This document shows positions 4,098-29,592 of a DNA stretch of 64,000 nt, piece by piece; position 1 is the first letter of the stretch; every line of letters starts with the position of its first letter. The DNA lies in sequence record PP400784, one strand, 5' to 3'. This stretch comes from Escherichia phage FL38. A program made the position numbers and the translations under genes. Under the pieces are notes generated by a model, which saw nothing but the letters and a program-made list of their open reading frames with translations, was not told where the DNA came from and did no database searches.

Positions 4098-4310
4098 TTA
4101 TAATGCACCATCGAGCAATTGCTCTAAGGTGTATCCTGAATAGTCTTTTTCAATCAGGATATATTTTCCTACTCGTTTAATACAACCGCGCATTTCAACG
4201 TATTCTGCGTAGTTGATGGTACGAGTTGTTCCATCTTCCAGTAATGCAGTACCGATTTCGTTAATGCGGTCATAAGTTACGTCGGTAATGATGATTTCGA
4301 TGTTAGCCAT
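4098..4310 (-). CDS. Hypothetical early protein (70 aa)
   Basis: ORF with SD AGGAG and upstream promoter cassette. Confidence 0.6.
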   Translation of the reverse strand: MANIEIIITDVTYDRINEIGTALLEDGTTRTINYAEYVEMRGCIKRVGKYILIEKDYSGYTLEQLLDGAL

Positions 4311-4346
4311 TTGATACTCCTTAGTAGTTCGTTTCGGTATGGGTGT

Positions 4347-4375
4347 ATTATGCTATACACCCTCTGTTATGTCAA
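4347..4375 (-). promoter_or_regulatory. Early sigma70-type promoter cassette (PeSL-like)
   Basis: Minus strand TTGACA-17 bp-CATAAT, A-tract upstream, conserved leader CCATACCGAAACGA then SD. Confidence 0.7.
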
Positions 4376-4381
4376 CAACTT

Positions 4382-4561
4382 TTAGAACATTTTTGAAATT
4401 AATTTTGCTTTGATTTCGCAGAGAACACCTAAAGATTTCTCGTCACCCGCTTTTGCTGCTTCTGATTGCATTTTTGAAATTGCTTCAATGTCAGTGCAAT
4501 TATAAGCCGCTTGAACTTTAGCGATTGCGATGATTGCCGATTCGATGGTTAAGTGTTTCAT
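4382..4561 (-). CDS. Hypothetical small protein (59 aa), not in ORF track
   Basis: ATG with SD AGGAGAA, flanked by promoter cassettes on both sides; translation MKHLTIESAIIAIAKVQAAYNCTD... Confidence 0.5.
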   Translation of the reverse strand: MKHLTIESAIIAIAKVQAAYNCTDIEAISKMQSEAAKAGDEKSLGVLCEIKAKLISKMF

Positions 4562-4593
4562 GTTTGATTCTCCTTTCGTTTCGGTATGTGTGC

Positions 4594-4622
4594 ATTATAG
4601 GGGATCACTGATCCCCTGTCAA
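4594..4622 (-). promoter_or_regulatory. Early promoter cassette with palindromic spacer
   Basis: TTGACA-GGGGATCAGTGATCCCC-TATAAT on minus strand; spacer is a perfect 17-bp palindrome. Confidence 0.7.
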
Positions 4623-4633
4623 CAACTTTTTAG

Positions 4634-5149
4634 TTATTTTTTTAATTGCTCATCTTGCAATAGGGCAATCACATGCTGGCGATGTTCTTCCGATTGAGGA
4701 ACACCGAAAAAGTTTGTTTTGTAGAAATACTCTAATCGGTCTTCTCGTGTGCTCTCTTCCATCATGATCGCGGGTAGTCCGAGATTTCGGAAACGTCGCT
4801 TTTCTGCTGGCGTAAAATCACTGTAATACAACATAGAATCATCATTACCAGCAATGCTAAACTCATCTTTCATGAAGGAGAATATTGCGTTTAAACGCTG
4901 TTTACCGTCCACGATTTCGATCTCATAGCGAGAGCCATCATCAATCTTAGCCATTGCGATAGCACCAACAGGAAAATCATTAATCATGTTTTCGATAAAC
5001 ATACGTTTGTTTTCGGTGTCCCATACCAAAGGACGCTGATAATCTGGGTTCATGTTGATAAAGCCATCTTCTAACCACGCCTCATAAACAGAGATGACAA
5101 AGTTTTTAGTATTGGTATAGTAACGGCGTTTAGGCGTTAAACGGTTCAT
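4634..5149 (-). CDS. DUF262 / ParB-like nuclease-domain protein (171 aa)
   Basis: Motifs DYQRPLVWD and IVDGKQRLNAI typical of DUF262 (GmrSD N-terminal, ParB/Srx fold); start trimmed to ATG with SD AGGAGA abutting upstream stop. Confidence 0.55.
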   Translation of the reverse strand: MNRLTPKRRYYTNTKNFVISVYEAWLEDGFINMNPDYQRPLVWDTENKRMFIENMINDFPVGAIAMAKIDDGSRYEIEIVDGKQRLNAIFSFMKDEFSIAGNDDSMLYYSDFTPAEKRRFRNLGLPAIMMEESTREDRLEYFYKTNFFGVPQSEEHRQHVIALLQDEQLKK

Positions 5150-5150
5150 G

Positions 5151-5480
5151 TTATAGTCTCCTGAATGGATCATCACGTAAATCAATATCTTTTAAGAACT
5201 CATCCCATGAATGGCGGATATTGTTCTCAATTCTCCAGATAAGCGCAGGGATTGAACGTTCTCCCATCTGGAAGTAAGGATCATATGATCCATATGCCCA
5301 ATATGCTACGACAATTCCACAATCAGCGCAATAATATTCTATTTCACTTGCTGGCGACCAAAGTCCATCAATATGATCAGTGATCTTGCTTTCGATGTTA
5401 TGGCTATGGCAATCAGGGCAACGGATGCAATGACCTTGTTTATCGTAATTTGACGTTAGAGAATACTTAAACAATCTCAT
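5151..5480 (-). CDS. Zinc-ribbon protein (109 aa)
   Basis: Cys clusters C-IRC-PDC and YCADCG; TAATG stop/start overlap with upstream gene. Confidence 0.5.
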   Translation of the reverse strand: MRLFKYSLTSNYDKQGHCIRCPDCHSHNIESKITDHIDGLWSPASEIEYYCADCGIVVAYWAYGSYDPYFQMGERSIPALIWRIENNIRHSWDEFLKDIDLRDDPFRRL

Positions 5481-6196
5481 TATAGATCCTTATTGGCTTC
5501 AAATACTGCCTTTGCGAATCCTCGCGGCGTAAGTGACCTGATAGTCTTTGTTTTCGTTCCTTTCCCGCCTAGCTTAGAATGCTGTTTACTGTACCCTTTA
5601 TTAATCTGCAAAGGTTTCTTTTCTGGCATTATAAAGCCTTGTCCGGTCCATAAGCAAGTCTTTTTCGGGTACATATCACGGGCGGCAATATACTCAGGAA
5701 ACGTAGGATGTTTGTCATCTTCCGGCAAATAACCGCCATATTCCCACGGATGGAACATGTAATCAGGCTTACGCCACATACTAGAGATAACGCTTACAGG
5801 ATTCTCTATCATGTAGGGAACTCCTAGCCATTCACCCAAATAAGCGGTTATTTTAGCTGCCCGTACATCATGAACTTGAATCAATGGTCCTTGTTCTCGT
5901 TTCTTTCGTTCAAAGTGCGCAGCGCCACTAACAGCTAAATTGGTGCACGGTGGGAATGCAAAGATAATATCCGGTTTCCCCCATTCAAGGTCCATTGCTC
6001 TTTCCAGCCAGTTCAAATCAATCCAGGTGTTTACATAGGTAATGTTTGGATGTTCAAATCTGGTATTATACTTTTTGTATGTACCGTGGTCGGCGTCATC
6101 CGCATTAAAGCAGACTACATTATGACCTGCTTTAGCCCATTCTAGCCCCATTATCCCCGATCCGTCAAAGTTGCAGAATATTAATTTTTGTTTCAT
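5480..6196 (-). CDS. SAM-dependent methyltransferase-like protein with C5-cytosine MTase-type motifs (238 aa)
   Basis: FCNFDGSG (motif I-like), FAFPPCTNLAVSGA (PC catalytic motif IV-like), VPYMIENP (ENV motif VI-like); no obvious target-recognition domain. Confidence 0.4.
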   Translation of the reverse strand: MKQKLIFCNFDGSGIMGLEWAKAGHNVVCFNADDADHGTYKKYNTRFEHPNITYVNTWIDLNWLERAMDLEWGKPDIIFAFPPCTNLAVSGAAHFERKKREQGPLIQVHDVRAAKITAYLGEWLGVPYMIENPVSVISSMWRKPDYMFHPWEYGGYLPEDDKHPTFPEYIAARDMYPKKTCLWTGQGFIMPEKKPLQINKGYSKQHSKLGGKGTKTKTIRSLTPRGFAKAVFEANKDL

Positions 6197-6438
6197 ATAC
6201 GACCCTTTAACCCAGTACAGATTTTAGTCGGTTCTTTACCGTGCCACATTAAGTAAAGTCCGTTAATGCGACCTTGTTTTGTGTGTGATTCTTTTCTGAT
6301 CTTCTTATAGTGTCGTGCTTCCTCAACCGATTGTTTAGAATACCAATCATAAAGGAATAGGCACAAAGGCCAACCATTAGCGGCCTTAATGCAGTTATTA
6401 AGAAATTCCTTATTGCGTTTAATTAATTTTCTTTTCAC
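6193..6438 (-). CDS. Hypothetical protein (81 aa), apparent GTG start
   Basis: ORF overlaps neighbours by 4 nt at both ends (GTGA / ATGA), suggesting translational coupling. Confidence 0.4.
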   Translation of the reverse strand: MKRKLIKRNKEFLNNCIKAANGWPLCLFLYDWYSKQSVEEARHYKKIRKESHTKQGRINGLYLMWHGKEPTKICTGLKGRI

Positions 6439-6686
6439 GCTGCCCCCATTGGTTTGATAGTAACAGAATCTAAAAGACCTTTGTTAGCCAGTTCGCGGCA
6501 AGTTTTCAGATCCGCAACTTCCCAGCCAGCCGCAATCAGGTTATCAATGAGGCTGTTAGCAACTTCTTCGCTCATGAAAGAGCACTGTTTGCCTATGGTG
6601 TAGCGTACACGCTGTAATTTCAGTTTACGGAAGCCTTTAACGTTCAGGTCTTTAGCGATTTTCTTTGCGGTTTCGATGTTAGCCAT
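6435..6686 (-). CDS. Hypothetical protein (83 aa), first gene of coupled cassette
   Basis: ATG with SD AGGAGAATCA directly downstream of promoter cassette. Confidence 0.6.
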   Translation of the reverse strand: MANIETAKKIAKDLNVKGFRKLKLQRVRYTIGKQCSFMSEEVANSLIDNLIAAGWEVADLKTCRELANKGLLDSVTIKPMGAA

Positions 6687-6726
6687 TGTTTGATTCTCCT
6701 AAGTGGTATCTCGTCTTGATGGTTGT

Positions 6727-6756
6727 ATTGTAGGGGATCTCCCGATCCCCTGTCAA
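6727..6756 (-). promoter_or_regulatory. Early promoter cassette
   Basis: TTGACA-18 bp (GGGGATCGGGAGATCCCC)-TACAAT on minus strand. Confidence 0.65.
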
Positions 6757-6770
6757 CACTTTTTATAAAA

Positions 6771-6938
6771 TTATTTGTTAATTTCTGGTGCGTTGCTAGG
6801 ATAGTAACCTTCTTTAACACCCAGGTATTTCGCAACCATCCCTACAATCTTCTGTGCTACTACAATGTCAAATTTCAGATAATCTTCGCCGTGGGTTTCA
6901 ATGATATATGCTTCACATGCTGCTTTAGTCTCGAACAT
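6771..6938 (-). CDS. Small protein (55 aa), copy A of duplicated gene
   Basis: MFETKAACEAYIIETHGEDYLKFDIVVAQKIVGMVAKYLGVKEGYYPSNAPEINK; near-identical second copy at 10581..10748. Confidence 0.65.
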   Translation of the reverse strand: MFETKAACEAYIIETHGEDYLKFDIVVAQKIVGMVAKYLGVKEGYYPSNAPEINK

Positions 6939-6971
6939 TTTGATTCTCCTATTTCGTTTCGTTATGTGTGT

Positions 6972-7000
6972 ATTATAGGGGATCTCCCGATCCCCGTCAA
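6972..7000 (-). promoter_or_regulatory. Early promoter cassette
   Basis: TTGACG-17 bp-TATAAT with GGGGATC...GATCCCC arms in spacer. Confidence 0.7.
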
Positions 7001-7013
7001 CAACTTTTTAAAA

Positions 7014-7487
7014 TTAGTTGCACCAAATTCGAATGATTTCGTCTCGTTCAAATTTTTGCCAGATTACTCGGTCGCCCGCTGCCATAATACTGACAAATCC
7101 AGTTATATTTCCGGTGTACTTGCTTTTAGTTTCTGCATCATATTCAAAGAATGGAGCTTTAAGATCGCTAAACTCATCTTTTCCCACAAACTTCATAACA
7201 TGACGGTGTGCGTAATATTCGCTTCTTAGTGTTGTTGTGATAGTTCCGTCATCATTTGATTTCAGATGCAATTCGGCATCTTCATAAAGACTTGCATCTC
7301 GTTGTTTACTTTCGATACCATCATTATATGTTGATTTGGTTGCACTCCAACATTGATATGTCTTATCTACATTTTCGATCTTTTCCTGTGTCATGTCAAA
7401 AAGCGGCGCAACCTTTTTCTTAGCCGCGTGCGCAACGTTGGTCATAGACAGTGCCGCAACAACCACAATCGCAATAATTTTCTTCAT
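7014..7487 (-). CDS. Predicted secreted/periplasmic protein (157 aa)
   Basis: N-terminal signal peptide MKKIIAIVVVAALSMTNVAHA with AHA-A cleavage site. Confidence 0.6.
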   Translation of the reverse strand: MKKIIAIVVVAALSMTNVAHAAKKKVAPLFDMTQEKIENVDKTYQCWSATKSTYNDGIESKQRDASLYEDAELHLKSNDDGTITTTLRSEYYAHRHVMKFVGKDEFSDLKAPFFEYDAETKSKYTGNITGFVSIMAAGDRVIWQKFERDEIIRIWCN

Positions 7488-7548
7488 AATATCATCTCCT
7501 TTGGTTTATATGGCGGGAGTATCTTAGCAATACTCCCTTAATACTATA

Positions 7549-7830
7549 TTATTCGTGATTAGTTTCGATGTTGTGCATTTTGCACCAGTTCAGCCAATCG
7601 CCCAGATCTTGATAGTTGATGCTTTTATCTGCTGCCATCGTTTTTGTCTTGATACCCATATGTGCGTTATGAGTAAGCATTTTTACAGTGAACTCAATTT
7701 TATCGCCTTTAGCTTTAACATCAACCAGTTTGGTCCACTGGCTACCAGCGCCGCGAATGTTCATGCCAACGATGTTTCCGATGTATGCTTCTTTGTTTTT
7801 CAGGATTTCGGTTGCTTTGATGAATTTCAT
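7549..7830 (-). CDS. Hypothetical protein (93 aa)
   Basis: ORF with SD and upstream promoter cassette. Confidence 0.55.
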   Translation of the reverse strand: MKFIKATEILKNKEAYIGNIVGMNIRGAGSQWTKLVDVKAKGDKIEFTVKMLTHNAHMGIKTKTMAADKSINYQDLGDWLNWCKMHNIETNHE

Positions 7831-7863
7831 TTTTGATTCTCCAGTTCGTTTCGGTATGGGTGT

Positions 7864-7892
7864 ATTATGCTATGTTCTTACTTTGGTGTCAA
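7864..7892 (-). promoter_or_regulatory. Early promoter cassette
   Basis: TTGACA-17 bp-CATAAT on minus strand with conserved leader. Confidence 0.7.
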
Positions 7893-7902
7893 CAACTTTT
7901 TT

Positions 7903-8172
7903 TTAGATATTTTCAGAAATAAATTTTAAAACTTGACGTAAATGTTTCTCATCTTTGATGGTCGCCGGAAGTTCTTCTTTTACTTCCTGTGCAAGATAGA
8001 TATTTCCGTTCCAAGTGAAAGATCCGTCTTCGTTTACGCGATAGCTGAACATCCACTCGCAATCATTTTCGATTTCATATACACACAGAAGGGTGTAATC
8101 GTTAAAGCTATTGATTTCAATGTCGAAGCCGTGACGTTTTGCAAAGTTGGTAGTGGTTTTAGTCAGTGCCAT
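7903..8172 (-). CDS. Hypothetical protein (89 aa)
   Basis: ORF with SD AGGAGAATCA and promoter cassette. Confidence 0.55.
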   Translation of the reverse strand: MALTKTTTNFAKRHGFDIEINSFNDYTLLCVYEIENDCEWMFSYRVNEDGSFTWNGNIYLAQEVKEELPATIKDEKHLRQVLKFISENI

Positions 8173-8212
8173 TGTTTGATTCTCCTAAGTGGTATCTCGT
8201 TTCGATGGGTGT

Positions 8213-8241
8213 ATTATGCTATAGGCGTGGTCTGGTGTCAA
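8213..8241 (-). promoter_or_regulatory. Early promoter cassette
   Basis: TTGACA-17 bp-CATAAT on minus strand. Confidence 0.7.
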
Positions 8242-8261
8242 TTCTTTTTTTAATTTTATGC

Positions 8262-8292
8262 AATAAAAAAAGCCGACGCTAAGGTCGGCTAA
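8262..8292 (-). terminator. Rho-independent terminator
   Basis: GCCGAC-gctaag-GTCGGC hairpin followed by U7 on minus strand, downstream of 8298..8606. Confidence 0.7.
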
Positions 8293-8297
8293 TAAAA

Positions 8298-8606
8298 TCA
8301 TTTAGACAAATAATCATTCAGTGCAATCCGGTCGGCGTATGCTGGTGTTACGTCAATCACAATCACTTTAACGCGTGCTTTCTTGCGACCTGGGTTTTCA
8401 CGTAACCAGTGCTCATGACCGTGAACATTTTTATACTGCGATGCTTCTTCGAAGGTACGGATCGGACCTGGGTAATCAGCGTAAAGGATCTCTAGATCTT
8501 CGGTGATGTAAAAATATACATCATAATTACTGTTCTCTAGTTTAAGCAGAGACTTTCGGAACATTGGGAGATTTTCGCGGGTAAATTCAAAGATATTATC
8601 TTTCAT
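8298..8606 (-). CDS. H-x-H-W family small protein, member 1 (102 aa)
   Basis: Shares Y-I-x-D ... H-x-H-W ... V-x-V-x-V pattern (VHGHEHW) with five paralogs nearby. Confidence 0.55.
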   Translation of the reverse strand: MKDNIFEFTRENLPMFRKSLLKLENSNYDVYFYITEDLEILYADYPGPIRTFEEASQYKNVHGHEHWLRENPGRKKARVKVIVIDVTPAYADRIALNDYLSK

Positions 8607-8656
8607 AGTATTATCCTCAATAGTTGGATGAAAAGGGGCGTTAACGCCCCCATATA

Positions 8657-8944
8657 TTAAAACAGTCCTTCCTGTACACCGTAGTAGAGTTCGTCGCTGA
8701 TAATTTCATTAATGCGACGGTGTGCATATTCCTGATTTGCGAAGTTGTCAGCAAGTTCTACTTTAGTTTCGCCGTCATGTGTCCATTTAGTGATAACTTT
8801 ACCATCTGCAAATTTGAAGTTGAACTCTTTAGCTACTGCATCGCGTACCAGACGTGCAAACTTATTGTTGCGGATTGCATTGTCGGTTTCGTGTGCAGCG
8901 TGAGCAAATTTGTTAACTTTCAGAGTGATAGTGATGTATGCCAT
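8657..8944 (-). CDS. Hypothetical protein (95 aa), paralog of 11984..12295
   Basis: Shared segment R..VR.A.AKEFN.K with 11984..12295 product. Confidence 0.55.
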   Translation of the reverse strand: MAYITITLKVNKFAHAAHETDNAIRNNKFARLVRDAVAKEFNFKFADGKVITKWTHDGETKVELADNFANQEYAHRRINEIISDELYYGVQEGLF

Positions 8945-8990
8945 AATTTGATTCTCCTAGTTAGAAAGTGTATCTCGTTTCGATGGGGAT

Positions 8991-9019
8991 ATTATGCTAT
9001 ATCCCCGATCCGGTGTCAA
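8991..9019 (-). promoter_or_regulatory. Early promoter cassette
   Basis: TTGACA-17 bp-CATAAT on minus strand. Confidence 0.7.
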
Positions 9020-9025
9020 CACTTT

Positions 9026-9304
9026 TTATAAAATAATTTTTTGATATTTTTCTATGATGTTCGTGTAAGTCACCTCAACCGCTAGCACCGTTGCTTCGAA
9101 TCCACCGTTTAGCCAATGGCTATGATCATGATCGTGAAAGAAACCAAGACCAGTACGAAGACCTTCTTTATATTCGGCGCGTACATTTAGATCATCATCG
9201 ATAAACAGATAAAACCATGAATTTTTACTAGGATTGATGATACAACCTTTCAGATTAGGGAGAATATCACGACTAAGAATAAACTTATCACCTACTTTGA
9301 ACAT
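9026..9304 (-). CDS. H-x-H-W family small protein, member 2 (92 aa)
   Basis: FHDHDHSHW motif; start trimmed to ATG (MFKVGDKF) preceded by SD GTGAGGA. Confidence 0.55.
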   Translation of the reverse strand: MFKVGDKFILSRDILPNLKGCIINPSKNSWFYLFIDDDLNVRAEYKEGLRTGLGFFHDHDHSHWLNGGFEATVLAVEVTYTNIIEKYQKIIL

Positions 9305-9308
9305 AATA

Positions 9309-9629
9309 TTAGTCCTCACTTATAAGGTCAAACCAATTGTTTTTCGCATAATGCTTAATGCGTGCTTGATCTGCTTCCGCTGGTGATAGATTCCATGCAA
9401 CCACTACAACTTCTGACGCATCGTCATCCGTTTCTGATACCCAGTGATTGTGATTCATACAGTTATTTGCTATCGAGTGAGCAAATGATTTCATCACTGG
9501 AGACGTATAATCATAGTAACGGATTTTCAGATTTTCATCAACATACAAATAGATCGTATAAGGTTTATATTCAGTAACCAGTAACAGACAGTTACGCAAT
9601 TCTGGGAAAATCTTTTTAGTTAATTTCAT
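9309..9629 (-). CDS. H-x-H-W family small protein, member 3 (106 aa)
   Basis: MNHNHW motif and family pattern. Confidence 0.55.
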   Translation of the reverse strand: MKLTKKIFPELRNCLLLVTEYKPYTIYLYVDENLKIRYYDYTSPVMKSFAHSIANNCMNHNHWVSETDDDASEVVVVAWNLSPAEADQARIKHYAKNNWFDLISED

Positions 9630-9843
9630 ATTCTAGTTCTCCGTAATACACGGTAATCCATTTTTCTTCATATTTTGTATCTTTCCAGCACACAATACCG
9701 TTTACTGTGCAATCTTTGGAATTGACGAATGATTCATATTGTTCCGCATCTTCCATCATTTCATGAGCGGTCTTTTCATCGAATATATCGCAGATCGCTT
9801 TATATGCTCGATAATCTTTAAATTTGCTCATAATTAACACCAC
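9616..9843 (-). CDS. Hypothetical protein (75 aa), tandem paralog of 9834..10043
   Basis: Both begin MSKFKDY(R/K)AY and share W(K/E)(D/E)T.Y motif. Confidence 0.5.
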   Translation of the reverse strand: MVLIMSKFKDYRAYKAICDIFDEKTAHEMMEDAEQYESFVNSKDCTVNGIVCWKDTKYEEKWITVYYGELEYEIN

Positions 9844-10043
9844 TCAAGAGTTTTTGAAAACACATCTATCCATTGTTGAGTATATGCGGTTTCTTTCCAT
9901 GATACAATACCAGTCGAATAATGGTTTTTGTTTCCAGAAAAGGACGGGCATTTTGATGCATCTTCCATCATCTTTTCGGCGAACTCTGGTGCGTATACTC
10001 GCAAAATCTGTTGATATGCTTTATAATCTTTAAACTTACTCAT
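9834..10043 (-). CDS. Hypothetical protein (69 aa), tandem paralog of 9616..9843
   Basis: N-terminal MSKFKDYKAY shared with neighbour. Confidence 0.5.
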   Translation of the reverse strand: MSKFKDYKAYQQILRVYAPEFAEKMMEDASKCPSFSGNKNHYSTGIVSWKETAYTQQWIDVFSKTLEWC

Positions 10044-10324
10044 AACAACACCACCGATACATCGTAATCATTCGCGGCCTTATCGGCTTCTTCAACCGAC
10101 ATAATACCTTCTGCGACAATTGGCATAGGGTGATCGTGATTCCACCAATGGTCATGTATATCAATTTCAGTTTTGCCGGAAAATGAATCATGTTTGACGT
10201 TTTTCACTTTATACCCGATGTGACCGTCGTGGTCAATAAAGATATAGTTTCCGAAAATCGGTGTCTGTAAAATCATACCGAAAAATTTTTCTTTGTTGTT
10301 CGGGTCGAGTGTAATCATTTTCAT
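10040..10324 (-). CDS. H-x-H-W family small protein, member 4 (94 aa)
   Basis: IFIDHDG ... IHDHWWNHDH motif. Confidence 0.55.
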   Translation of the reverse strand: MKMITLDPNNKEKFFGMILQTPIFGNYIFIDHDGHIGYKVKNVKHDSFSGKTEIDIHDHWWNHDHPMPIVAEGIMSVEEADKAANDYDVSVVLL

Positions 10325-10336
10325 AATATATTCCTC

Positions 10337-10516
10337 TTAGAAAGGGATGGTCATTTCTTGAGCTTGTACATTCTCATTAGGATTAAACTTAATCCAACCG
10401 ATATTGTCTACCAGCATATGCACATTTTTATCATATCCTACGTGAGTAGTCAACACTAAATGTGCTTTACCTTCAACGATGATTTCCATGTACTTCTGAA
10501 CTTCGATAGCTTTCAT
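10337..10516 (-). CDS. Hypothetical small protein (59 aa), not in ORF track
   Basis: ATG with SD GGAGAATCA directly downstream of promoter cassette; MKAIEVQKYMEIIVEGKAHLVL... Confidence 0.45.
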   Translation of the reverse strand: MKAIEVQKYMEIIVEGKAHLVLTTHVGYDKNVHMLVDNIGWIKFNPNENVQAQEMTIPF

Positions 10517-10548
10517 TTTGATTCTCCGTTTGTTGTCTTGATGGGAGT

Positions 10549-10577
10549 ATCTTACTACTCCCTTTAATCATTGTCAA
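10549..10577 (-). promoter_or_regulatory. Early promoter cassette
   Basis: TTGACA-17 bp-TAAGAT within GGGAGTAGTAAGATACTCCC inverted repeat. Confidence 0.6.
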
Positions 10578-10580
10578 CTA

Positions 10581-10748
10581 TTATTTGTTAATTTCCGGTG
10601 CGTTGCTTGGATAGTAACCTTCTTTAACACCCAGATATTTTGCAACCATTCCGGTGATCTTCTGTGCTACTACGATATCGAATTTCAGGTAGTCTTCACC
10701 GTGGTTTGCTACAATGTATGCTTCGCATTCTGCTTTAGTCTGGAACAT
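10581..10748 (-). CDS. Small protein (55 aa), copy B of duplicated gene
   Basis: MFQTKAECEAYIVANHGEDYLKFDIVVAQKITGMVAKYLGVKEGYYPSNAPEINK; ORF-track start 10814 is an extension through the promoter. Confidence 0.65.
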   Translation of the reverse strand: MFQTKAECEAYIVANHGEDYLKFDIVVAQKITGMVAKYLGVKEGYYPSNAPEINK

Positions 10749-10782
10749 TTTTGATTCTCCTATATCTCGTTGGTATGTGTGT

Positions 10783-10811
10783 AGTATAGGGGATCTCCCG
10801 ATCCCCGTCAA
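10783..10811 (-). promoter_or_regulatory. Early promoter cassette
   Basis: TTGACG-17 bp-TATACT; near-copy of cassette at 6972..7000. Confidence 0.6.
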
Positions 10812-10819
10812 CAACTTTT

Positions 10820-11128
10820 TTATTCTTCATCTTCATTTTTATCTTTATATGCGTACTTCATAAATTTGTCTGCTACTTTGTCCGCGTTTTCAGGTTCTAC
10901 GTCTGACGCTAGGACAACAGCTAGTTCGGTTTTGTCGTTTCCATCATACCAATGATTATGAGTGTCGTTTTCTTCGATATAAAACGAATCATTTGGAGTT
11001 GTGCGACAATATACGTCTAAATTCCCATCGATATAAAAGATCCAATCCGAATACAAAATGATTGCTTTAGCCAGATTTTTATTGTCTCTTACAAAAGGTT
11101 CCGCGACAAATAGCTTAGTTTGTTCCAT
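10820..11128 (-). CDS. H-x-H-W family small protein, member 5 (about 102 aa)
   Basis: WIFYIDGNLDVY ... THNHW motif; start trimmed to MEQTKLF with SD GAGGAAA. Confidence 0.5.
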   Translation of the reverse strand: MEQTKLFVAEPFVRDNKNLAKAIILYSDWIFYIDGNLDVYCRTTPNDSFYIEENDTHNHWYDGNDKTELAVVLASDVEPENADKVADKFMKYAYKDKNEDEE

Positions 11129-11144
11129 AATATTTTCCTCAAAA

Positions 11145-11336
11145 TTATACAGCTTCGTAAACTTCCCAATGTCCAACACCAGCACGCTTAACGAAAAGGT
11201 TTTCTTTGATGTTATTCATAAACGTCTGGATAGATTTAATGCGGTTTGAAGGTTTCCATTCTTCGTTGGCATTGCGTCGATACATCATAACATTACCAGT
11301 TCGCTTATATTCAGCAACCATTTTAAGACCACACAT
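11145..11336 (-). CDS. Hypothetical protein (63 aa)
   Basis: ORF with SD GAGGA upstream of ATG. Confidence 0.45.
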   Translation of the reverse strand: MCGLKMVAEYKRTGNVMMYRRNANEEWKPSNRIKSIQTFMNNIKENLFVKRAGVGHWEVYEAV

Positions 11337-11393
11337 AATATTATCCTCAATTTGTGGGAGAGTATTACCCCTCCCAATGATTGTTATGTTATA

Positions 11394-11714
11394 TCACACA
11401 AAATGGCGTGTCAATGCTTCTTTTGCGGTTCCGCTAAGACTTTCGATCTCGCCTGGCATAACATCAACCGCCAGAACTTCTACAACATCCTCGGACCCTA
11501 ACCAGTGAGTATGGCCTTTGTAGAACTTGATAACCAGACTACCTTCCTCATCCCATTTAACGCTATCGCTAGCCCACCACACATCACCGTCGATAAAGTT
11601 GATGTAAAGCACACTACGCCACATTGAATTAATTACTTTCAATACTGCGCCTTTCATCTCTTCCACGGTATGGTCTTCCATTTTGAAGACCTCACCTACC
11701 TGAACTTTTGCCAT
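11394..11714 (-). CDS. H-x-H-W family small protein, member 6 (106 aa)
   Basis: LYINFIDGDVWW ... KGHTHW ... VVEVLAVDV pattern. Confidence 0.55.
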   Translation of the reverse strand: MAKVQVGEVFKMEDHTVEEMKGAVLKVINSMWRSVLYINFIDGDVWWASDSVKWDEEGSLVIKFYKGHTHWLGSEDVVEVLAVDVMPGEIESLSGTAKEALTRHFV

Positions 11715-11731
11715 TTAGTCACCTCTCTTTA

Positions 11732-11911
11732 TTACATAACAATCACGCCAGCCGTTGAAAGTTGATGTTTCAACTGAGCATTTTCTGCTACCGTCAAATC
11801 AATGATTTCTTGTGACGCTGCAATCATATATCCATTGGTGATATTGTTTTGCATCAGTTCAATGGTTTCTTCGTTGTAGCGGATTTTAGCGATGATTTCG
11901 TTGAAGTTCAT
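11732..11911 (-). CDS. Hypothetical small protein (about 59 aa), not in ORF track
   Basis: ATG with SD AGGAGAATCA downstream of promoter cassette; boundaries approximate. Confidence 0.35.
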   Translation of the reverse strand: MNFNEIIAKIRYNEETIELMQNNITNGYMIAASQEIIDLTVAENAQLKHQLSTAGVIVM

Positions 11912-11945
11912 AATTGATTCTCCTAGTTCGTTTCGGTATGTGTGT

Positions 11946-11975
11946 ATTATAGGGGAGTTTAACCTCCCTTGTCAA
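11946..11975 (-). promoter_or_regulatory. Early promoter cassette
   Basis: TTGACA-18 bp-TATAAT on minus strand. Confidence 0.65.
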
Positions 11976-11983
11976 CAACTTTT

Positions 11984-12295
11984 TTAAAGTTTTTCCATGA
12001 TAACGGTCATAATTACATCTTCTGCGCGAGCGGTCAGATTATCAGCGTCAGCATGTGGGCGGTTGGTTGTTACAGAGATAACACCGTTGCGCACTGGTTT
12101 GATATTGATATCAAGATGATCCGCGAAACGTTCGCCAGTTACAGAATGAATTTTGGTGTTAAATTCTTTTGCCAGTGCCTTGCGAACTTCACGAATCAGG
12201 GTAGCGTTTTTCAGTTGGTTCTCCGCGCTCATGGTCTTCTGGGTGTTCATGGTTCCGTCGAAGTCAATCATTGGCAGCGTTACGATGTATTTCAT
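11984..12295 (-). CDS. Hypothetical protein (103 aa), paralog of 8657..8944
   Basis: Shared REVRKALAKEFNTK segment; SD and promoter cassette upstream. Confidence 0.55.
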   Translation of the reverse strand: MKYIVTLPMIDFDGTMNTQKTMSAENQLKNATLIREVRKALAKEFNTKIHSVTGERFADHLDINIKPVRNGVISVTTNRPHADADNLTARAEDVIMTVIMEKL

Positions 12296-12340
12296 TTTTG
12301 ATTCTCCGTTTAAGAAAGTGTGTTTCGTTTTGATGTGTGT

Positions 12341-12369
12341 AGTATAGGGGATACGTGATCCCCTGTCAA
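12341..12369 (-). promoter_or_regulatory. Early promoter cassette
   Basis: TTGACA-GGGGATCACGTATCCCC-TATACT on minus strand. Confidence 0.65.
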
Positions 12370-12382
12370 CAACTTTTTTGAA

Positions 12383-12859
12383 TTATTTTTCTTGATGCTC
12401 GCGCTCGTACTTTTCGAAATAAAATTCTACTGGCTGGTCATGAATTGACAGCAAGCCAAAGCGTTTAGCCGCTCGCAATCCCATATTGCGCTGAATGTAC
12501 TTCTGGAAGTTCTCGCGTATACACTTACGCCAGTATTCTAAGCCCATACAGCTTTTATAAAGGTTGCATTGCACACACGCCGGATTCATGTTATCAAGTA
12601 TATCATGTTCCGGTTTATGCATTCCTACAACCTTATACTTCCACGATCCATCATCATTACGGGCAATTCGTCCATTTTCATCATAGACTACCTTTGATCG
12701 TCGCAATACTGGTTTGATATGGTCTGCGTGCCAGCGATCCCCTAGTTCCTCGCCACAATAGGCACAACGTCCACCGTATTTCATTTTCAGGATCTGGCGT
12801 TGCTCTTTCTTTGACAATTTTTTAGGTTTAGGGGCTTTCGCCCCTTCATTATCACACAT
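12383..12859 (-). CDS. HNH endonuclease (158 aa)
   Basis: CAYCGEEL ... WHADHIKP ... NPACVQCN: HNH/zinc-finger signature; overlaps ligase stop by 8 nt. Confidence 0.7.
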   Translation of the reverse strand: MCDNEGAKAPKPKKLSKKEQRQILKMKYGGRCAYCGEELGDRWHADHIKPVLRRSKVVYDENGRIARNDDGSWKYKVVGMHKPEHDILDNMNPACVQCNLYKSCMGLEYWRKCIRENFQKYIQRNMGLRAAKRFGLLSIHDQPVEFYFEKYEREHQEK

Positions 12860-19766: not shown

Positions 19767-20165
19767 TTAACTTTCCAGAATATCGCGAGCTTCGTTACGC
19801 TCCTTGATGATTTTCAGGACAAATTCCAGTTTTTCTTTGTTCAGCGTTCCATTTTCCATTGCTTCTTTGACGGTAAACACTCCGCCACCTTGCCCGTATA
19901 CAGTGACAGTGATTTCACCTAACATCGTGGTGTGAAAACCGCCAATTTTCGGTGATTCGAAAGAAACAATTACCTCGCGAACAGTATTACCGTCGTTGAT
20001 TTCTGAGAGGGTAATGTCGTTTTTGTAGGCGGTTGCTTTAACCATACGGATCAGCATAGTCTGATCTGGGGAGATGGTCATTTTGTCCATTGCATGTTGC
20101 AATGCAGCGTAACCGAAAACTTTAACGAAGTCCAGAACGTCTTTGCGAGTTTGAAATTTAATCAT
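19767..20165 (-). CDS. Hypothetical protein (132 aa)
   Basis: ORF with SD AGGAGTATCA and promoter cassette upstream. Confidence 0.55.
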   Translation of the reverse strand: MIKFQTRKDVLDFVKVFGYAALQHAMDKMTISPDQTMLIRMVKATAYKNDITLSEINDGNTVREVIVSFESPKIGGFHTTMLGEITVTVYGQGGGVFTVKEAMENGTLNKEKLEFVLKIIKERNEARDILES

Positions 20166-20198
20166 CTTGATACTCCTTAGTTGTTTTGGTATGGGAGT

Positions 20199-20228
20199 AT
20201 CTTACTACTCCCGTGATATGCTGTCAAC
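20199..20228 (-). promoter_or_regulatory. Early promoter cassette
   Basis: TTGACA-18 bp-TAAGAT within GGGAGTAGTAAGATACTCCC inverted repeat. Confidence 0.6.
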
Positions 20229-20235
20229 TGCTTTT

Positions 20236-20385
20236 TTATGCAACCGCAAACATCAACATTTGAACATTCTTGGCTGTCTGGCTTTCAAAGTTCTGACATT
20301 CTTTGATAATGTCCTCTACTTTCTCGCCGGAGATCTCCGCGTAAGTTTCGATTGCCATTTTCAGTACCGCGTCAAAGTTGTTCAT
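20236..20385 (-). CDS. Hypothetical small protein (49 aa), not in ORF track
   Basis: MNNFDAVLKMAIETYAEISGEKVEDIIKECQNFESQ...; SD AAGGAGAATCA; promoter cassettes both sides. Confidence 0.45.
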   Translation of the reverse strand: MNNFDAVLKMAIETYAEISGEKVEDIIKECQNFESQTAKNVQMLMFAVA

Positions 20386-20423
20386 TTGATTCTCCTTAAA
20401 GTTTATTTCGTTTCGATGGGGGT

Positions 20424-20452
20424 ATATTAATACCCCCGTTATTCAGTGTCAA
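20424..20452 (-). promoter_or_regulatory. Early promoter cassette
   Basis: TTGACA-17 bp-TAATAT inside GGGGGTATTAATATACCCCC palindrome. Confidence 0.65.
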
Positions 20453-20671
20453 CTACTTTTTAATGACAATTTCGAATTTTGCTACCTTGCGTCCTCGTTT
20501 ATTGAAAGCAACCCACGGACGGTTTTCAATATAGAACAATTCTTCGCCAATAATGAATACTGGCTGATTGTAAAGGCGACCCATCAGGTCACGCTGGCGA
20601 ATGGTAGTAGATTCGTATACTTCGCCTACTACAAAGTGTTTGCTGATAGAGTCGGTGCAAGTAAATTTCAT
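20453..20671 (-). CDS. Hypothetical protein (72 aa)
   Basis: ORF with SD AGGAGAATCA after promoter cassette. Confidence 0.55.
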   Translation of the reverse strand: MKFTCTDSISKHFVVGEVYESTTIRQRDLMGRLYNQPVFIIGEELFYIENRPWVAFNKRGRKVAKFEIVIKK

Positions 20672-20704
20672 TTTGATTCTCCTTTGTTTCGTTTCGATGG
20701 GAGT

Positions 20705-20733
20705 ATCTTACTACCCCCGTTATTCAGTGTCAA
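20705..20733 (-). promoter_or_regulatory. Early promoter cassette
   Basis: TTGACA-17 bp-TAAGAT. Confidence 0.6.
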
Positions 20734-20740
20734 CTACTTT

Positions 20741-20959
20741 TTACTTGTTGTATTCATTCCACCATTGGGTGAGCTTATCAATTATTTTTGTGTTTCTATC
20801 CAACTTATCCCACCGTTTTCTAGGGTTTATCAACCGGAATAGGTAAGGTGTACTTGTTAAGTGAACTCGGTCAATGTAGTGATTGATGTACTGCTTTTCG
20901 ATTCTAAGTTTCATCTTTTTACGATGAAAATATGCAATGACTTGTTCTTCTGTTTCCAT
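20741..20959 (-). CDS. Hypothetical protein (72 aa)
   Basis: ORF with SD GGAGGAACAT after promoter cassette. Confidence 0.55.
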   Translation of the reverse strand: METEEQVIAYFHRKKMKLRIEKQYINHYIDRVHLTSTPYLFRLINPRKRWDKLDRNTKIIDKLTQWWNEYNK

Positions 20960-20983
20960 ATGTTCCTCCGTTTCGATGGGTGC

Positions 20984-21012
20984 ATTATGTTATACCCCGA
21001 TCCGATTGTCAA
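20984..21012 (-). promoter_or_regulatory. Early promoter cassette
   Basis: TTGACA-17 bp-CATAAT. Confidence 0.65.
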
Positions 21013-21059
21013 CACCCAATAACAAAAAAGTCGCCACTATGGGCGACTTTGAACAAACA

Positions 21060-23049: not shown

Positions 23050-23217
23050 TATCCGACAACCTCAAAACATTTATCATCAGGAAGAATCGCCCATTCTACA
23101 CCATATTCATCCTCGACGTAGTAGCAAGTCCCATCATGTCGAGCATCATATTCATCACCAACAACAAAGCTATCAGCTAGTTCAAAAATCTACAGCAACA
23201 CATTTTAATTTGGTCAT
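23049..23217 (-). pseudogene. Small ORF interrupted by a frameshift in an A5/T5 homopolymer (about 56 aa if one T removed)
   Basis: ATG with SD GTGAGGA after promoter gives MTKLKCVAVDF then stop; the +1 frame continues 45 codons and ends in a TAATG overlap with the next gene. Confidence 0.4.
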
Positions 23218-23248
23218 AATAAAATCCTCACTTGTTTTTGATGGTTGT

Positions 23249-23277
23249 ATTATAGCGGGGATTTCTCCCCGCGTCAA
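23249..23277 (-). promoter_or_regulatory. Early promoter cassette
   Basis: TTGACG-17 bp (CGGGGAGAAATCCCCGC)-TATAAT. Confidence 0.65.
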
Positions 23278-23285
23278 CACTTATT

Positions 23286-25529
23286 TTACAGCTTGCAAGA
23301 TGAGCACTCGCTAGCGTCTTCCGTACCATCTGCACCGTCGCGAACGTTCGCATAATACAGGGTTTTCAGACCGTAATATTGAGCAAACAGCATATCATCT
23401 AACACATCAGCAATATCGACTTTACCAGTCTTATAAGTGCTTGGATCGTATGATGTATTGGAACTAATCGCCTGATCCACAAACTTCTGCATGATCGCTG
23501 CCAGTGTCAGATAAGGCTTGTTACCTTTCTTGATCAGTGTCCAAAGCAGGTCAATAACATCAGCATTATTCTCTACGTTCGGAATAACCTGATTAAATTG
23601 CCCTTCTTTCGATCCTTTAACCGATACAATCCCGCGAGGCGGTTCAATACCATTTGTGCTGTTAGACACCTGAGAAGATGACTCACAAGGCATCAGCGCC
23701 GAAAGCGTACTGTTACGAATGCCATATTTTTTCAGGTCTTCGCGCAGTTCTTCCCAATCCATCTCATACACCGGATCAACCAGTTCATCTACTGTCTTTT
23801 TGTACCAGTCGATAGGCAGTTCACCGCGACCATAACGTGTTTCATGCATCAGTTCGCAAGCACCCTTCTCTTTAGCCAGTTGCACACTAGCCTTAATCAG
23901 AGCATATTGCAAGCGTTCAAACGTTTTATGCGTAAACTCGTTAGCATCTTCATATGTGAAGAAATTATCTGCTAGATATGATGCAAAGTTAGTAACACCA
24001 ACACCCAGAGAGCGACGTTTTTTGGCTGTCAGTGCTTGTTCTACAGGATAATCCTGATAATCTAACAGGTTGTCAAGTGCACGCACCATAACCATAGCAA
24101 TGCGTTCTACTTCTTCCATATTTTCGATATCGAAATTACCTAAAACATATGCTGCCAAAGTACATAGGCTAATTTCTGAATCATCACGACCCATCGGTTT
24201 TGTTGGCAGAGCAATTTCACAACACAGGTTAGATTGTTTAATCGGTGCTACATTACGAATAAACGCCCCGTGATTGTTCATGTTGTCTGTGAACGTTGGG
24301 TAGATTCGACCAGTGTTAAAACGTTCAATTGCCACCGCTAAAAACAGGTCTTCGGCTTTAACACGAGTTTTACGAACACTCGGATCTTTTTCCAGTTTTT
24401 CGTAAAGTTGGCGGAAACCTTCCTCGTCTCGGAAGTACAGATCCCACAACAAGCCACCCGCAACATCTGGACTAAACAGAGTAATGTAATCCCGTTTAAG
24501 GAATCGCTCTACCATCAGGTTATTAATCTGTACGCCGTAGTCAAGATGGCGAATGCGGTTATCTTCCACGCCCTTATTGTTCTTTAACACAATCAGACTT
24601 TCAAACTCTAAATGCCACATTGGGTAATAGAGTGTCGCTGCCCCGCCACGAATACCGCCTTGTGAGCATGACTTAACGGCAGTCTGAAAATGTTTCCAGA
24701 ATGGGATAACTCCAGTATGACGAACTTCACCATGCCCGATCTTAGATCCTTCCGCGCGAATCATGCCAGCGTTGATACCGATACCAGCACGCTTGCTAAT
24801 ATACTTGATGATTGCATTTGCGGTTTCATTAATACCCTGCAATGAGTCATCACTTTCAATCACCACACACGAACTAAATTGGCGTGTTGGGGTACGCACA
24901 CCTGCCATAATCGGAGTAGGCAGAGAGATTTGCTTATTCGCAACCGCATTATAAAAATCAATCACATGTTCAAGTCGATTTTCTGTCTCTTCTTGATGCA
25001 AGCACATACCGATCAGCATATACGCAAATTGCGGTGTTTCGATGATTTTCTTAGTGCTGCGATCTTGAACAAGATATTTCTCTTTTAACTGCATCGCACC
25101 AGCATAGGTCATTTTAAAATCAAGTTTATGGTCGATGAATTTCTCCAGATATTCCACTTCTTCACGGGAATACTTTTGCAGAATTTCGCGATCATATTTT
25201 CCGGTTGCAATATTACGCTCAATATGGCTGTAAAAATCAATTGGTTGGAATTGACCGTATACTGATTTGCGAAGCGCGAACATTGCAAGGTTACTTGCTA
25301 CATATTGATAATCGGGTGTTTCTACAGTAATGTTATCTGCTGCGACCTTAATCAATACTTTCTGGATATCGTTGGTAGACATACCTTCTGTCAGAAGTGG
25401 TTCAACCATATCAAACAATTCATATGGATCAACGTTATGACCTTCGGCTGCCGCTTCCAGAATTTTCATTACTTTTTCTTTTTCAAAAGGAACAGTCAGA
25501 CCGGAAGACTTAACAACATTTTTAATCAT
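23286..25529 (-). CDS. nrdA: Ribonucleotide reductase large subunit (class Ia, alpha)
   Basis: 747 aa; C-terminal redox tail ECSSCKL; size and position as in T4. Confidence 0.9.
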   Translation of the reverse strand: MIKNVVKSSGLTVPFEKEKVMKILEAAAEGHNVDPYELFDMVEPLLTEGMSTNDIQKVLIKVAADNITVETPDYQYVASNLAMFALRKSVYGQFQPIDFYSHIERNIATGKYDREILQKYSREEVEYLEKFIDHKLDFKMTYAGAMQLKEKYLVQDRSTKKIIETPQFAYMLIGMCLHQEETENRLEHVIDFYNAVANKQISLPTPIMAGVRTPTRQFSSCVVIESDDSLQGINETANAIIKYISKRAGIGINAGMIRAEGSKIGHGEVRHTGVIPFWKHFQTAVKSCSQGGIRGGAATLYYPMWHLEFESLIVLKNNKGVEDNRIRHLDYGVQINNLMVERFLKRDYITLFSPDVAGGLLWDLYFRDEEGFRQLYEKLEKDPSVRKTRVKAEDLFLAVAIERFNTGRIYPTFTDNMNNHGAFIRNVAPIKQSNLCCEIALPTKPMGRDDSEISLCTLAAYVLGNFDIENMEEVERIAMVMVRALDNLLDYQDYPVEQALTAKKRRSLGVGVTNFASYLADNFFTYEDANEFTHKTFERLQYALIKASVQLAKEKGACELMHETRYGRGELPIDWYKKTVDELVDPVYEMDWEELREDLKKYGIRNSTLSALMPCESSSQVSNSTNGIEPPRGIVSVKGSKEGQFNQVIPNVENNADVIDLLWTLIKKGNKPYLTLAAIMQKFVDQAISSNTSYDPSTYKTGKVDIADVLDDMLFAQYYGLKTLYYANVRDGADGTEDASECSSCKL

Positions 25530-28079: not shown

Positions 28080-28112
28080 AATATAATCCTCTCTTTGTTT
28101 CGATGTATGTGT

Positions 28113-28140
28113 ATTATACACTACTGCGTTACACTGTCAA
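28113..28140 (-). promoter_or_regulatory. Early promoter cassette
   Basis: TTGACA-16 bp-TATAAT overlapping the 3' end of upstream gene. Confidence 0.6.
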
Positions 28141-29511: not shown

Positions 29512-29539
29512 TTTTATCCTCCGTTGTTTCGATGTGTGC

Positions 29540-29567
29540 ATTATACATTACCACATAAGCATGTCAA
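29540..29567 (-). promoter_or_regulatory. Early promoter cassette
   Basis: TTGACA-16 bp-TATAAT followed by conserved leader ACACATCGAAACAA. Confidence 0.65.
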
Positions 29568-29592
29568 CACCTTTTTTCATAAAATTTTAGAC

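Follow-up and report, generated by a model that had tools for sequence, protein, structure and literature searches.

The closest described counterparts of the elements analysed here are the promoter-early stem-loops (PeSLs) of the T4-like coliphages phi1 and RB49, which were first defined and tested in the region of open reading frames (ORFs) 185 to 212 of these phages (Arbiol et al. 2010, Genome Biol Evol, PMC2839356) a concept that Comeau et al. 2014 (PMC4122927) then carried over to other T4-like phages. A PeSL combines a σ70 early promoter and its AT-rich upstream tract with a GC-rich stem-loop in one of five positions, including those that fall between the -35 box and the -10 box or overlap them, and carries a Shine-Dalgarno sequence and an ATG at its 3' end; these elements are intergenic, lie for the most part in hyperplastic regions and ahead of ORFans, and 52 of them were counted in phi1 (164 kb) and 51 in RB49 (PMC2839356). 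We analysed a stretch of 64,000 nucleotides from Escherichia phage FL38 (sequence record PP400784), hereafter the window, centring on its positions 4347-12369, hereafter the span. Units of about 85 bp recur in both. Since the phage is of the same lineage (98% identical to phi1), the units lie in the same region and one copy is identical to a tested element, we are confident that they are PeSLs, the composite regulatory cassettes of phi1/RB49-type coliphages, as the first-pass annotation of this DNA had suggested. The element is already known, and its presence in the window is a confirmation, not a discovery.

Judged by its sequence, the window belongs to a Krischvirus, that is, a phi1/RB49-type T4-like phage. 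The span shares 97.9% identity with Escherichia phage Phi1 over 93% of its length and 97.8% identity with GEC-3S, and all 58 records matching it are Krischvirus-type coliphages or Shigella phages; the relatives used for comparison were GenBank phage records. It corresponds to the interval from alt to gp30 (ligase), holds the homologs of ORF185-212, all of them on the minus strand like every gene of the span, and includes the hyperplastic region 3 (HPR3 of PMC2839356), home of ORFan192. Copies are designated below by the first base of their -35 box. The copy at 12369 is equivalent to RB49 PeSL211/210: the intergenic sequence and the ORF210 start are identical over the compared stretch, and only farther upstream, where the C-terminal codons of the gene before it lie, do the two sequences differ. 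Nothing essential distinguishes the cassettes of the window from phi1/RB49 PeSLs, with which they share the σ70 consensus, the AT-rich tract, a stem-loop between or overlapping the boxes, the Shine-Dalgarno sequence with ATG and the association with indels, at a similar density (about 27 in 64 kb here, 52 in 164 kb in phi1). The window has its own cassette content, namely an ORF192 allele 72% identical to that of RB49 with a degenerate PeSL before it, and other hairpin alleles at some slots (6756 and 11975). Promoter annotations of the GEC-3S record coincide with the 11 slots of the span and with 11 of the 14 slots outside it, the slots 47989, 55769 and 62028 not being covered.

A nhmmer profile built from 19 seed copies found 25 strong copies in the window (E <= 3e-5), six of them non-seed, all on the minus strand and co-directional with the genes. 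Eleven are in the span (4375, 4622, 6756, 7000, 7892, 8241, 9019, 10577, 10811, 11975 and 12369) and the others outside it (20227, 20452, 20733, 21012, 23277, 28140, 29567, 47173, 47395, 47677, 47989, 48695, 55769 and 62028). Two degenerate promoter-hairpin sites with a different leader, at 56138 and 62597, raise the total to 27, so that both the overall number of about 27 and the eleven copies of the span given by the first-pass annotation were recovered; further related sites are found at 1960 and 11414. No copy occurs within the plus-strand late tail-fibre block of the window. A chance origin of the repeats is excluded. Indeed, TTGACA-N17-TATAATACACCCAT with up to three mismatches has 18 matches and 0.00 in 100 shuffles, GGAGAATCAAA with up to one mismatch has 18 matches against 1.8 expected from shuffles, and an independent repeat finder returned one family of 7 x 72 nt and another of 6 x 58 nt. 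A generic promoter scan at loose thresholds gave 35 candidates against 25.9 ± 6.4 in shuffles, a total not above the shuffled level; this loose count was not used as evidence, and the only candidates to stand out in that scan are those that agree at 11 or all 12 of the 12 positions.

The 25 copies, aligned on the -35 box, display the succession of elements that had been described for them: A-tract, TTGACA, spacer of 16-18 bp, TATAAT-like -10 box, conserved leader and strong Shine-Dalgarno sequence. The A-rich tract, typically AAAAAGTTG, precedes the -35 box in most copies, and the box itself is TTGACA or differs from it at no more than one position in all 25. The spacer is typically of 17 bp (two copies have one of 16 bp and two have one of 18 bp), and the -10 box reads TATAAT, CATAAT, TATACT or TACAAT, with TAAGAT in one subclass. 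The discriminator that comes next is rich in C (ACACCC, ACTCCC, ATCCCC or ACCCCC) and runs into the leader, AT(AC)CGAAACGA. After it stand a ribosome-binding block with a GGAG-type Shine-Dalgarno sequence, most often exactly GGAGAATCAAA, and the ATG, located 24-46 nt after the -10 box. Transcription would most likely start at the A of AT(AC)CGAAACGA.

Such a near-consensus σ70 promoter, with its A-rich UP-like tract, TTGACA, spacer of 17±1 bp, -10 box and C-rich discriminator, could be used by the unmodified host RNA polymerase right after infection. Initiation at each cassette is predicted because of the promoter consensus and of published reporter data: the PeSL206/205 promoter yielded about 13,000 Miller units of lacZ activity (PMC2839356), and the copy at 10811 sits in this very slot. 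The short unstructured leader and the fixed GGAGAATCAAA(N)ATG would, in turn, provide for strong translation of the first gene. Compared with T4-type early promoters in general (Nolan et al. 2006, PMC1524935), the cassettes agree in having a UP-like tract rich in A at -40 to -44, either T or C at -12, C-rich positions -3 to -1, a -35 box with G at -33 as in RB49, and a placement 5' of early and novel ORFs; the generic description of these promoters includes neither an embedded hairpin nor a conserved leader and ribosome-binding block. The 5' ends mapped by Desplats et al. 2002 are said to fit the early-promoter consensus of RB49 (PMC1524935). A further perfect promoter, TTGACA-16-TATAAT at 30636-30663 (minus strand), stands upstream of the gene 32 homolog and has no PeSL leader or hairpin; GEC-3S also marks a promoter at this non-PeSL site, and the RB49 GenBank record has an 'early RB49 promoter' at the equivalent of window position 30663.

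Each cassette appears to fill an intergenic gap in an early minus-strand small-gene block. The near-identical sequence of about 85 bp recurs in the same orientation every 0.25-2 kb. Cassettes directly precede 11 of the about 25 genes of the span (~44%), and not most of the small genes, as had been stated; the remaining genes form overlapping runs of two to six (mini-operons) behind one cassette. The genes downstream of cassettes are annotated as 'hypothetical protein' in the relatives. An upstream stop codon was assigned by the automated search in 21 copies: in 16 of them it is located 0-14 nt before the -35 box, and in four others it is 47-63 nt away; for three copies this search placed none. 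The practical value of these elements is in annotation, since about 27-30 early transcription units of the window can be bounded from sequence alone.

Within the cassettes, 18 of the 25 copies carry a stem with a folding free energy of -9 to -15 kcal/mol and a z-score of -3.4 to -6.1 relative to shuffles. The stems are GC-rich, of 6-9 bp, with loops of 3-6 nt, and are arranged in two ways. In the 8 copies of class A, the spacer is taken up by the stem, for instance TTGACA-GGGGATCnnnGATCCCC-TATAAT, whereas in class B (10 copies) the -10 box is in the loop and the 3' arm coincides with the discriminator, ending at -1. A scan of IMG/VR with the class A core TTGACN{0,1}GGGGN{9,11}CCCCTA returned, among the matches listed, almost exclusively single and unrelated occurrences, and one Krischvirus contig alone had two; the ORF198 protein, used as a query for related loci, led to a single IMG/VR locus, on an ECD7-like contig. 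About eight arm alleles are found, all self-complementary, including GGGGATC/GATCCCC, GGGGAG/CTCCCC, GCGGGGA/TCCCCGC, GGGTGTAT/ATACACCC, GGGGATAT/ATATCCCC, GGGAGTA/TACTCCC and GGGGGTA/TACCCCC. The 5' arm follows each variant of the 3' arm (TGT/ACA, GAT/ATC, AGT/ACT and GGT/ACC). On the other hand, copies deprived of a hairpin retain the discriminator and have no complementary G-run. The GGGGATC arms occur with seven different loops across ten genomes, and all 8-10 relatives examined retain hairpins at the same slots. The proposal of the first-pass annotation that the arms vary in sequence and still pair is thus borne out by folding (z <= -3.4) and by conservation in relatives, and all the arm examples it quoted are present; its inverted repeat in the spacer or -10 region holds for the 18 copies, about a quarter of the cassettes having no embedded hairpin.

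The case for covariation draws on subclass B1, on the existence of distinct arm alleles and on what orthologous slots show when compared. Two base pairs of subclass B1 have changed in both arms, with a cell count and a covariation score that 0-1 of 500 shuffles each attained. The ORF198 slot is occupied by GGGGATAT/ATATCCCC in the window, by GGGTGTAT/ATACACCC in JEP8 and JK32, and by a G·U intermediate in ECD7; at the ORF209 slot, four different hairpins exist among ten phages. Among the internal non-Watson-Crick pairs compatible with the stem, in the window and its relatives, seven are G·U on the sense strand and none is A·C (p ~0.01 if the events are independent; the count was completed by inspection of the hairpins), and two of the seven are intermediates of an A-U/G·U/G-C series. 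Since all these wobbles are sense-strand G·U and none is A·C, they argue for selection acting on the transcribed sense-strand RNA rather than on the DNA palindrome. At the gathering threshold, no Rfam family matches anywhere in the window.

Since the stem is upstream of the predicted start of its own cassette, it is expected to be transcribed only as the 3' tail of the upstream RNA. The embedded stem could therein terminate or attenuate, or at least structure, the transcripts arriving from the upstream unit and, as a 3'-end structure, would presumably insulate neighbouring units. In the literature, lacZ expression fell as much with the PeSL211/210 stem-loop as with rrnB T1 (PMC2839356); an action on upstream transcripts is shown for this one stem and may be extended to the rest. 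A third function may be encoded in the ribosome-binding block. In T4, early mRNAs are cut by the RegB/S1 endoribonuclease at the consensus GGAGRAYARAA (Durand et al. 2006, PMC1702504), and RB49 encodes a RegB homolog (PMC3014915). The cassette block GGAGAAUCAAA resembles T4 RegB sites in its location, the translation-initiation region of early genes, and matches 10 of the 11 consensus positions; it differs at position 8, which is C here, while T4 strongly prefers A. The motif GGAGRAYMRAA has 15 matches against 0.63 expected, GGAGAAUCAAA is present in 13 exact copies, 12 of them behind a PeSL, and internal genes of the operons use other Shine-Dalgarno sequences. One exact GGAGAATCAAA, at 55524-55534 (minus strand), is not behind a PeSL promoter; it is at the end of the 64-codon gene launched by the PeSL at 55769 and constitutes the ribosome-binding site of the next gene. 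A link to RegB is absent from the PeSL papers (PMC2839356, PMC4122927). We therefore propose, tentatively, that the cassette may be a three-function module consisting of a promoter, a hairpin acting on upstream transcripts and a putative RegB/S1 site, instead of the two-function element that was published. If this is true, each PeSL-launched first cistron would carry a built-in early shut-off signal. The wobble pairs and the RegB-like block would both refine the picture of how these cassettes insulate and then silence early genes.

Several observations weigh against the main reading, in which the units are PeSLs whose hairpin acts on upstream RNA. Seven of the 25 copies have a weak embedded hairpin or none, so the hairpin is not obligatory. 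A canonical terminator with a T6-T7 run is found immediately upstream in four of these seven (8241, 21012, 29567 and 48695), a substitution that speaks for the main reading; three or four copies are without any hairpin, embedded or upstream, and the sites 11414 and 62597 have theirs downstream of the -10 box. In subclass B2, covariation assessed by pair counting is not significant (180 of 500 shuffles scored as high). Furthermore, much of the arm diversity at a given slot reflects whole hairpin alleles that were swapped, not stepwise compensatory mutation. As to the wobbles, six of the seven G·U events correspond to a sense-strand A-to-G change and the seventh to A-to-G or C-to-T; a strand-specific A-to-G mutation bias is, for this reason, a possible source of these pairs. 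Finally, the published terminator activity concerns one class A stem-loop only, and a lacZ reporter cannot separate termination from RNA processing (PMC2839356), while the sequences that follow the stems do not look like those of terminators. Among the 8 nt next to the stem on its 3' side, 3-4 are T in class A (TATAATAC) and no more than 1-2 in class B (ATACCGAA, ATCGAAAC). The rho-independent criterion of at least five U in the 8 nt after the hairpin thus excludes the embedded stems, and a generic terminator scan of the sense strand called no embedded PeSL stem; in the span, it called only 8290-8271 and 4090-4076. Since they lack a U-tract, the embedded hairpins are not canonical intrinsic terminators. 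They share with rho-independent terminators the GC-rich stem of 6-9 bp, the loop of 3-6 nt, the stability of -9 to -15 kcal/mol and a position just after the stop codon, but most of them differ by the missing U-tract, and true T6-T7 terminators exist separately (8271-8290 and upstream of 21012, 29567 and 48695). The dual role that the first-pass annotation considered probable, 3' end of one transcript and promoter of the next gene, agrees with what PMC2839356 reports.

This lack of a U-tract, together with the silence of the generic scan, is what makes the main rival explanation attractive: the stems could be post-transcriptional 3'-end stabilisers or processing sites, acting as a barrier to 3' exonucleases or as determinants for ribonuclease III or ribonuclease E, with transcription reading through. 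The G·U bias fits it equally, as it indicates an RNA-level role of unspecified kind, and the authors of the lacZ assay, which cannot tell termination from processing, themselves write 'terminator/attenuator' (PMC2839356). Nevertheless, a canonical terminator often replaces the missing embedded hairpin, which suggests an equivalent function, the hairpins at 56138 and 1960 do have a T-run after the stem, and the tested stem-loop equals rrnB T1 in effect (PMC2839356); we thus regard pure stabilisation or processing as rather unlikely.

Two further explanations deny the stem an RNA function, and both fit the data poorly. According to one, the inverted repeats act as DNA, either as cruciforms or palindromic sites for a phage recombinase or nuclease, in an integron-like manner, or as sites for a regulator of early promoters. 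Arbiol et al. (PMC2839356) speculated about a DNA-binding protein that would recognise the GGGG...CCCC motif, indels do cluster at the cassettes, and a gene for an HNH/putative endonuclease (ORF212) flanks the region. However, because there are about eight arm alleles and the stem takes varying positions in the promoter, no common recognition sequence emerges. The wobbles, all of them sense-strand G·U (seven to zero), would turn into A·C mismatches in the opposite strand of a cruciform, and crossovers fall in the shared stretch from the -10 box to the leader, not at a fixed point of the hairpin, which fits homology-driven exchange. The PeSL authors hold that the usual integrases, excisionases and recombinases are inapplicable to these phages (PMC2839356), and no search for such enzymes was made in the window. 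We consider a DNA-level role very improbable, and even more so the other explanation, in which the hairpins are incidental: G-runs of the spacer would pair by chance with the C-rich discriminator, and the similarity between copies would reflect recent promoter duplication. It is true that the class B 3' arm (ACACCC) is also present in hairpin-less copies and hence belongs to the promoter consensus, that, according to Nolan et al. 2006 (PMC1524935), positions -3 to -1 are preferentially C in several T4-like phages, and that the copies have clearly been homogenised by recombination. Chance pairing would hardly produce folding z-scores of -3.4 to -6.1 in 18 copies or a 5' arm that tracks every 3'-arm variant; class A stems include no promoter element at all, and across 10 genomes the arms are kept while the loops vary freely and only pairing-compatible wobbles appear.

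Beyond expression, the cassettes would provide a substrate for gene shuffling, as had been anticipated, a role that the indel breakpoints directly support. The span was aligned pairwise with eight relatives (nine genomes), and indels of at least 200 bp were surveyed. Six of the seven distinct indels start or end at a PeSL; the single one unrelated to PeSLs is the deletion 6191-6432 in JK32. The cassettes of ORF186 (4328-4574), ORF191 (6719-6963) and ORF210 (11938-12332) are each missing from some phages, and the length lost is in each case precisely one PeSL-to-PeSL period. What survives is a chimeric cassette, in which the upstream promoter and hairpin are joined to the downstream leader and gene, with the switch between the -10 box and the leader. 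Junctions of PeSL mini-circles, for which inverse polymerase chain reaction gave evidence during infection, were reported to switch likewise between the -10 box and the leader (PMC2839356). The ORF192 slot (7014-7547), the ORF195/196 insertion (~8250) and ORF211 (~12389) are also at PeSL edges, and the segment 6770-7009, composed of a PeSL and ORF191, is duplicated at 10580-10820 with 86-90% identity. It seems that the recurrent co-oriented units of ~85 bp offer homology by which the phage recombination system would delete, duplicate or swap promoter-gene modules, with crossovers inside the cassettes. Collectively, the breakpoints and the chimeras support PeSL-mediated module shuffling, and the exact deletions, chimeric cassettes and swapped hairpin alleles bring independent support for it from genomes sequenced after 2010. 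Like lambdoid 'morons' and integron cassettes, a comparison also made by Arbiol et al. (PMC2839356), PeSL modules consist of one gene each, carried along with the signals for its own expression, and are inserted or deleted as a whole at intergenic sites. Morons, however, have no conserved flanking repeats, and integrons need an integrase and attC sites, whereas the exchange of PeSLs looks homology-driven between regulatory repeats.

Two groups of genes in the span illustrate the content of these modules. The window allele of ORF192 occurs in 6 of the 58 records and is 99.4% identical to that of G2494 and 72% identical to that of RB49. The ORF192-like gene (7014-7487, minus strand) encodes 157 residues. 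Its N-terminus resembles a signal peptide, and over the initial ~46 residues it hardly differs from RB49 ORF192, beyond which the divergence is sharp; the product looks like a mosaic or fast-evolving secreted protein. Between 8298 and 11714 (minus strand), six small proteins of similar length, the homologs of ORF197, 199, 200, 203, 206 and 208, have a common HxHW-type motif; BLASTP links some of them at E values of 1e-4 to 1e-13, and ORF201 and ORF202 are paralogs, 46% identical. This region looks to have been built by repeated cassette duplication.

Along the span, the individual cassettes, all on the minus strand like the other sites listed from here on, are organized as follows. The PeSL of the ORF185 homolog (4308-4393; ATG at 4310) is of class B, with GGGTGTAT/ATACACCC at 4341-4362 and CATAAT in the loop, and that of the ORF186 homolog (4551-4638; ATG at 4561) is of class A, with GGGGATC-agt-GATCCCC in the spacer of a perfect TTGACA-17-TATAAT. 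Class A is also represented by the PeSL of the ORF190 homolog (6684-6774), GGGGATC-ggga-GATCCCC, where most relatives have GGGGAG-gataa-CTCCCC, and by that of the ORF191 homolog (6931-7017), which forms the left border of the ORF192 insertion slot. The ORF192-like gene itself has a degenerate copy (7485-7548), GGGAGTAT-tgctaag-ATACTCCC with TAAGAT and no -35 box; RB49 has TTGAAA-17-TAAGAT at this place. The hairpin is absent from the PeSL of the ORF193 homolog (7823-7909), here and in every relative examined. The PeSL of the ORF194 homolog (8170-8258), at whose upstream edge RB49, Sf20 and JK32 have the ORF195/196 insertion, is also without an embedded hairpin; directly upstream of it, a canonical intrinsic terminator (8271-8290) consists of AGCCGAC...GTCGGCT followed by T7. 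A terminator-like hairpin with no promoter, GGGGCGTTAACGCCCC then TTTTC, is located between ORF198 and ORF197 (8635-8650) and is annotated in GEC-3S.

Further along, the PeSL of the ORF198 homolog (8945-9037) is of class B with GGGGATAT/ATATCCCC, and that of the ORF204 homolog (10513-10590) is of class B with GGGAGTA/TACTCCC and TAAGAT as its -10 box. The PeSL of the ORF205 homolog (10739-10824), in the promoter-tested PeSL206/205 slot, is of class A and, with its gene, duplicates 6770-7009. The ORF207 homolog has a promoter-like TTGACA site (11334-11414) with GGGAG...CTCCC 3' of the -10 box, which places it in the 'stem-loop after the -10' subclass. The PeSL of the ORF209 homolog (11905-11993) is of class A with GGGAG-gttaaa-CTCCC, three other hairpin alleles being present in relatives, and that of the ORF210 homolog (12287-12386), the RB49 PeSL211/210 equivalent, has GGGGAT-cacgt-ATCCCC. 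Before the span, a related promoter and hairpin just downstream of alt (1897-1960), outside the 27, shows TTGACT-17-TATACT inside ACGGGG(A)CTAG...CTAGCCCCGT, then TTTTC, with another leader.

Outside the span, four PeSLs belong to the small-gene block between denA and nrdB. The first three are of class B: 20161-20238 with GGGAGTA/TACTCCC, 20379-20468 with GGGGGTAT/ATACCCCC and 20667-20746 with GGGGGTA/TACTCCC, which includes one sense-strand G·U pair. The fourth (20937-21029) has a weak hairpin and, just upstream, the canonical terminator GTCGCC...GGCGAC then T6. The PeSL at 23209-23292 is of class A with GCGGGGA-gaaa-TCCCCGC, and the gene behind it is frameshifted in the window. At ~23182-23190, a run of T5, against T4 in GEC-3S, RB49 and JK32, shifts the frame of this ORF233 homolog, which reaches a stop after 11 codons; either a genuine pseudogene or a sequencing error in the homopolymer could account for it. 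The PeSL heading the block that includes frd (28070-28158) has a 16-bp spacer and only a weak hairpin, and that at 29510-29585, also with a 16-bp spacer, has no embedded hairpin and is preceded just upstream by the canonical terminator AGCCTCCC...GGGAGGCT then T6.

Five PeSLs lie in the 47.1-48.7 kb block, which has the holin gene on one side and gene 52 on the other. The first (47101-47184) is of class B with GGGAGTA/TACTCCC, the second (47329-47413) of class A with GGGGATC-gcc-GATCCCC, and the third (47620-47695) of class B with GGGAGTAT/ATACTCCC and TAACAT as its -10 box. The fourth (47921-48006) has no significant hairpin, and the fifth (48627-48711), without an embedded one, has the canonical terminator AGCCGATC...GGTCGGCT then T6 just upstream. 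The PeSL at 55708-55786 is of class B with GGGGATAT/ATGTCCCC, including one sense-strand U·G pair. The first of the two degenerate sites (56074-56138) has a perfect TTGACA-16-TATAAT within the 13-bp hairpin GGGAGATTCTC...GGGAGTCTCCC, then TTTTC, and another leader. The PeSL at 61961-62044 has no hairpin and AATAAT as its -10 box. In the second degenerate site (62531-62597), TTGACA-17-TATTAT is followed by GCCTCC...GGAGGC and T6, directly before the ATG; the 3' arm of this hairpin holds the sole Shine-Dalgarno candidate (GGAGG), so translation start and terminator-like signals overlap.

Several GGGGATC arms contain GATC, as the first-pass annotation had pointed out. The promoter cores hold 14 GATC in 1.25 kb, about twice the background, an excess due to one arm allele, and the window-wide number is at expectation (341 observed, 336 expected); a Dam-type signal was set aside on these grounds, and no significance is attached to the motif. 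GGCC is strongly under-represented in the window, with 29 occurrences against ~70 expected (ratio 0.42). The gene at 5480-6196 of the span has homologs in relatives that are annotated as C-5 cytosine (Dcm-like) methyltransferase.

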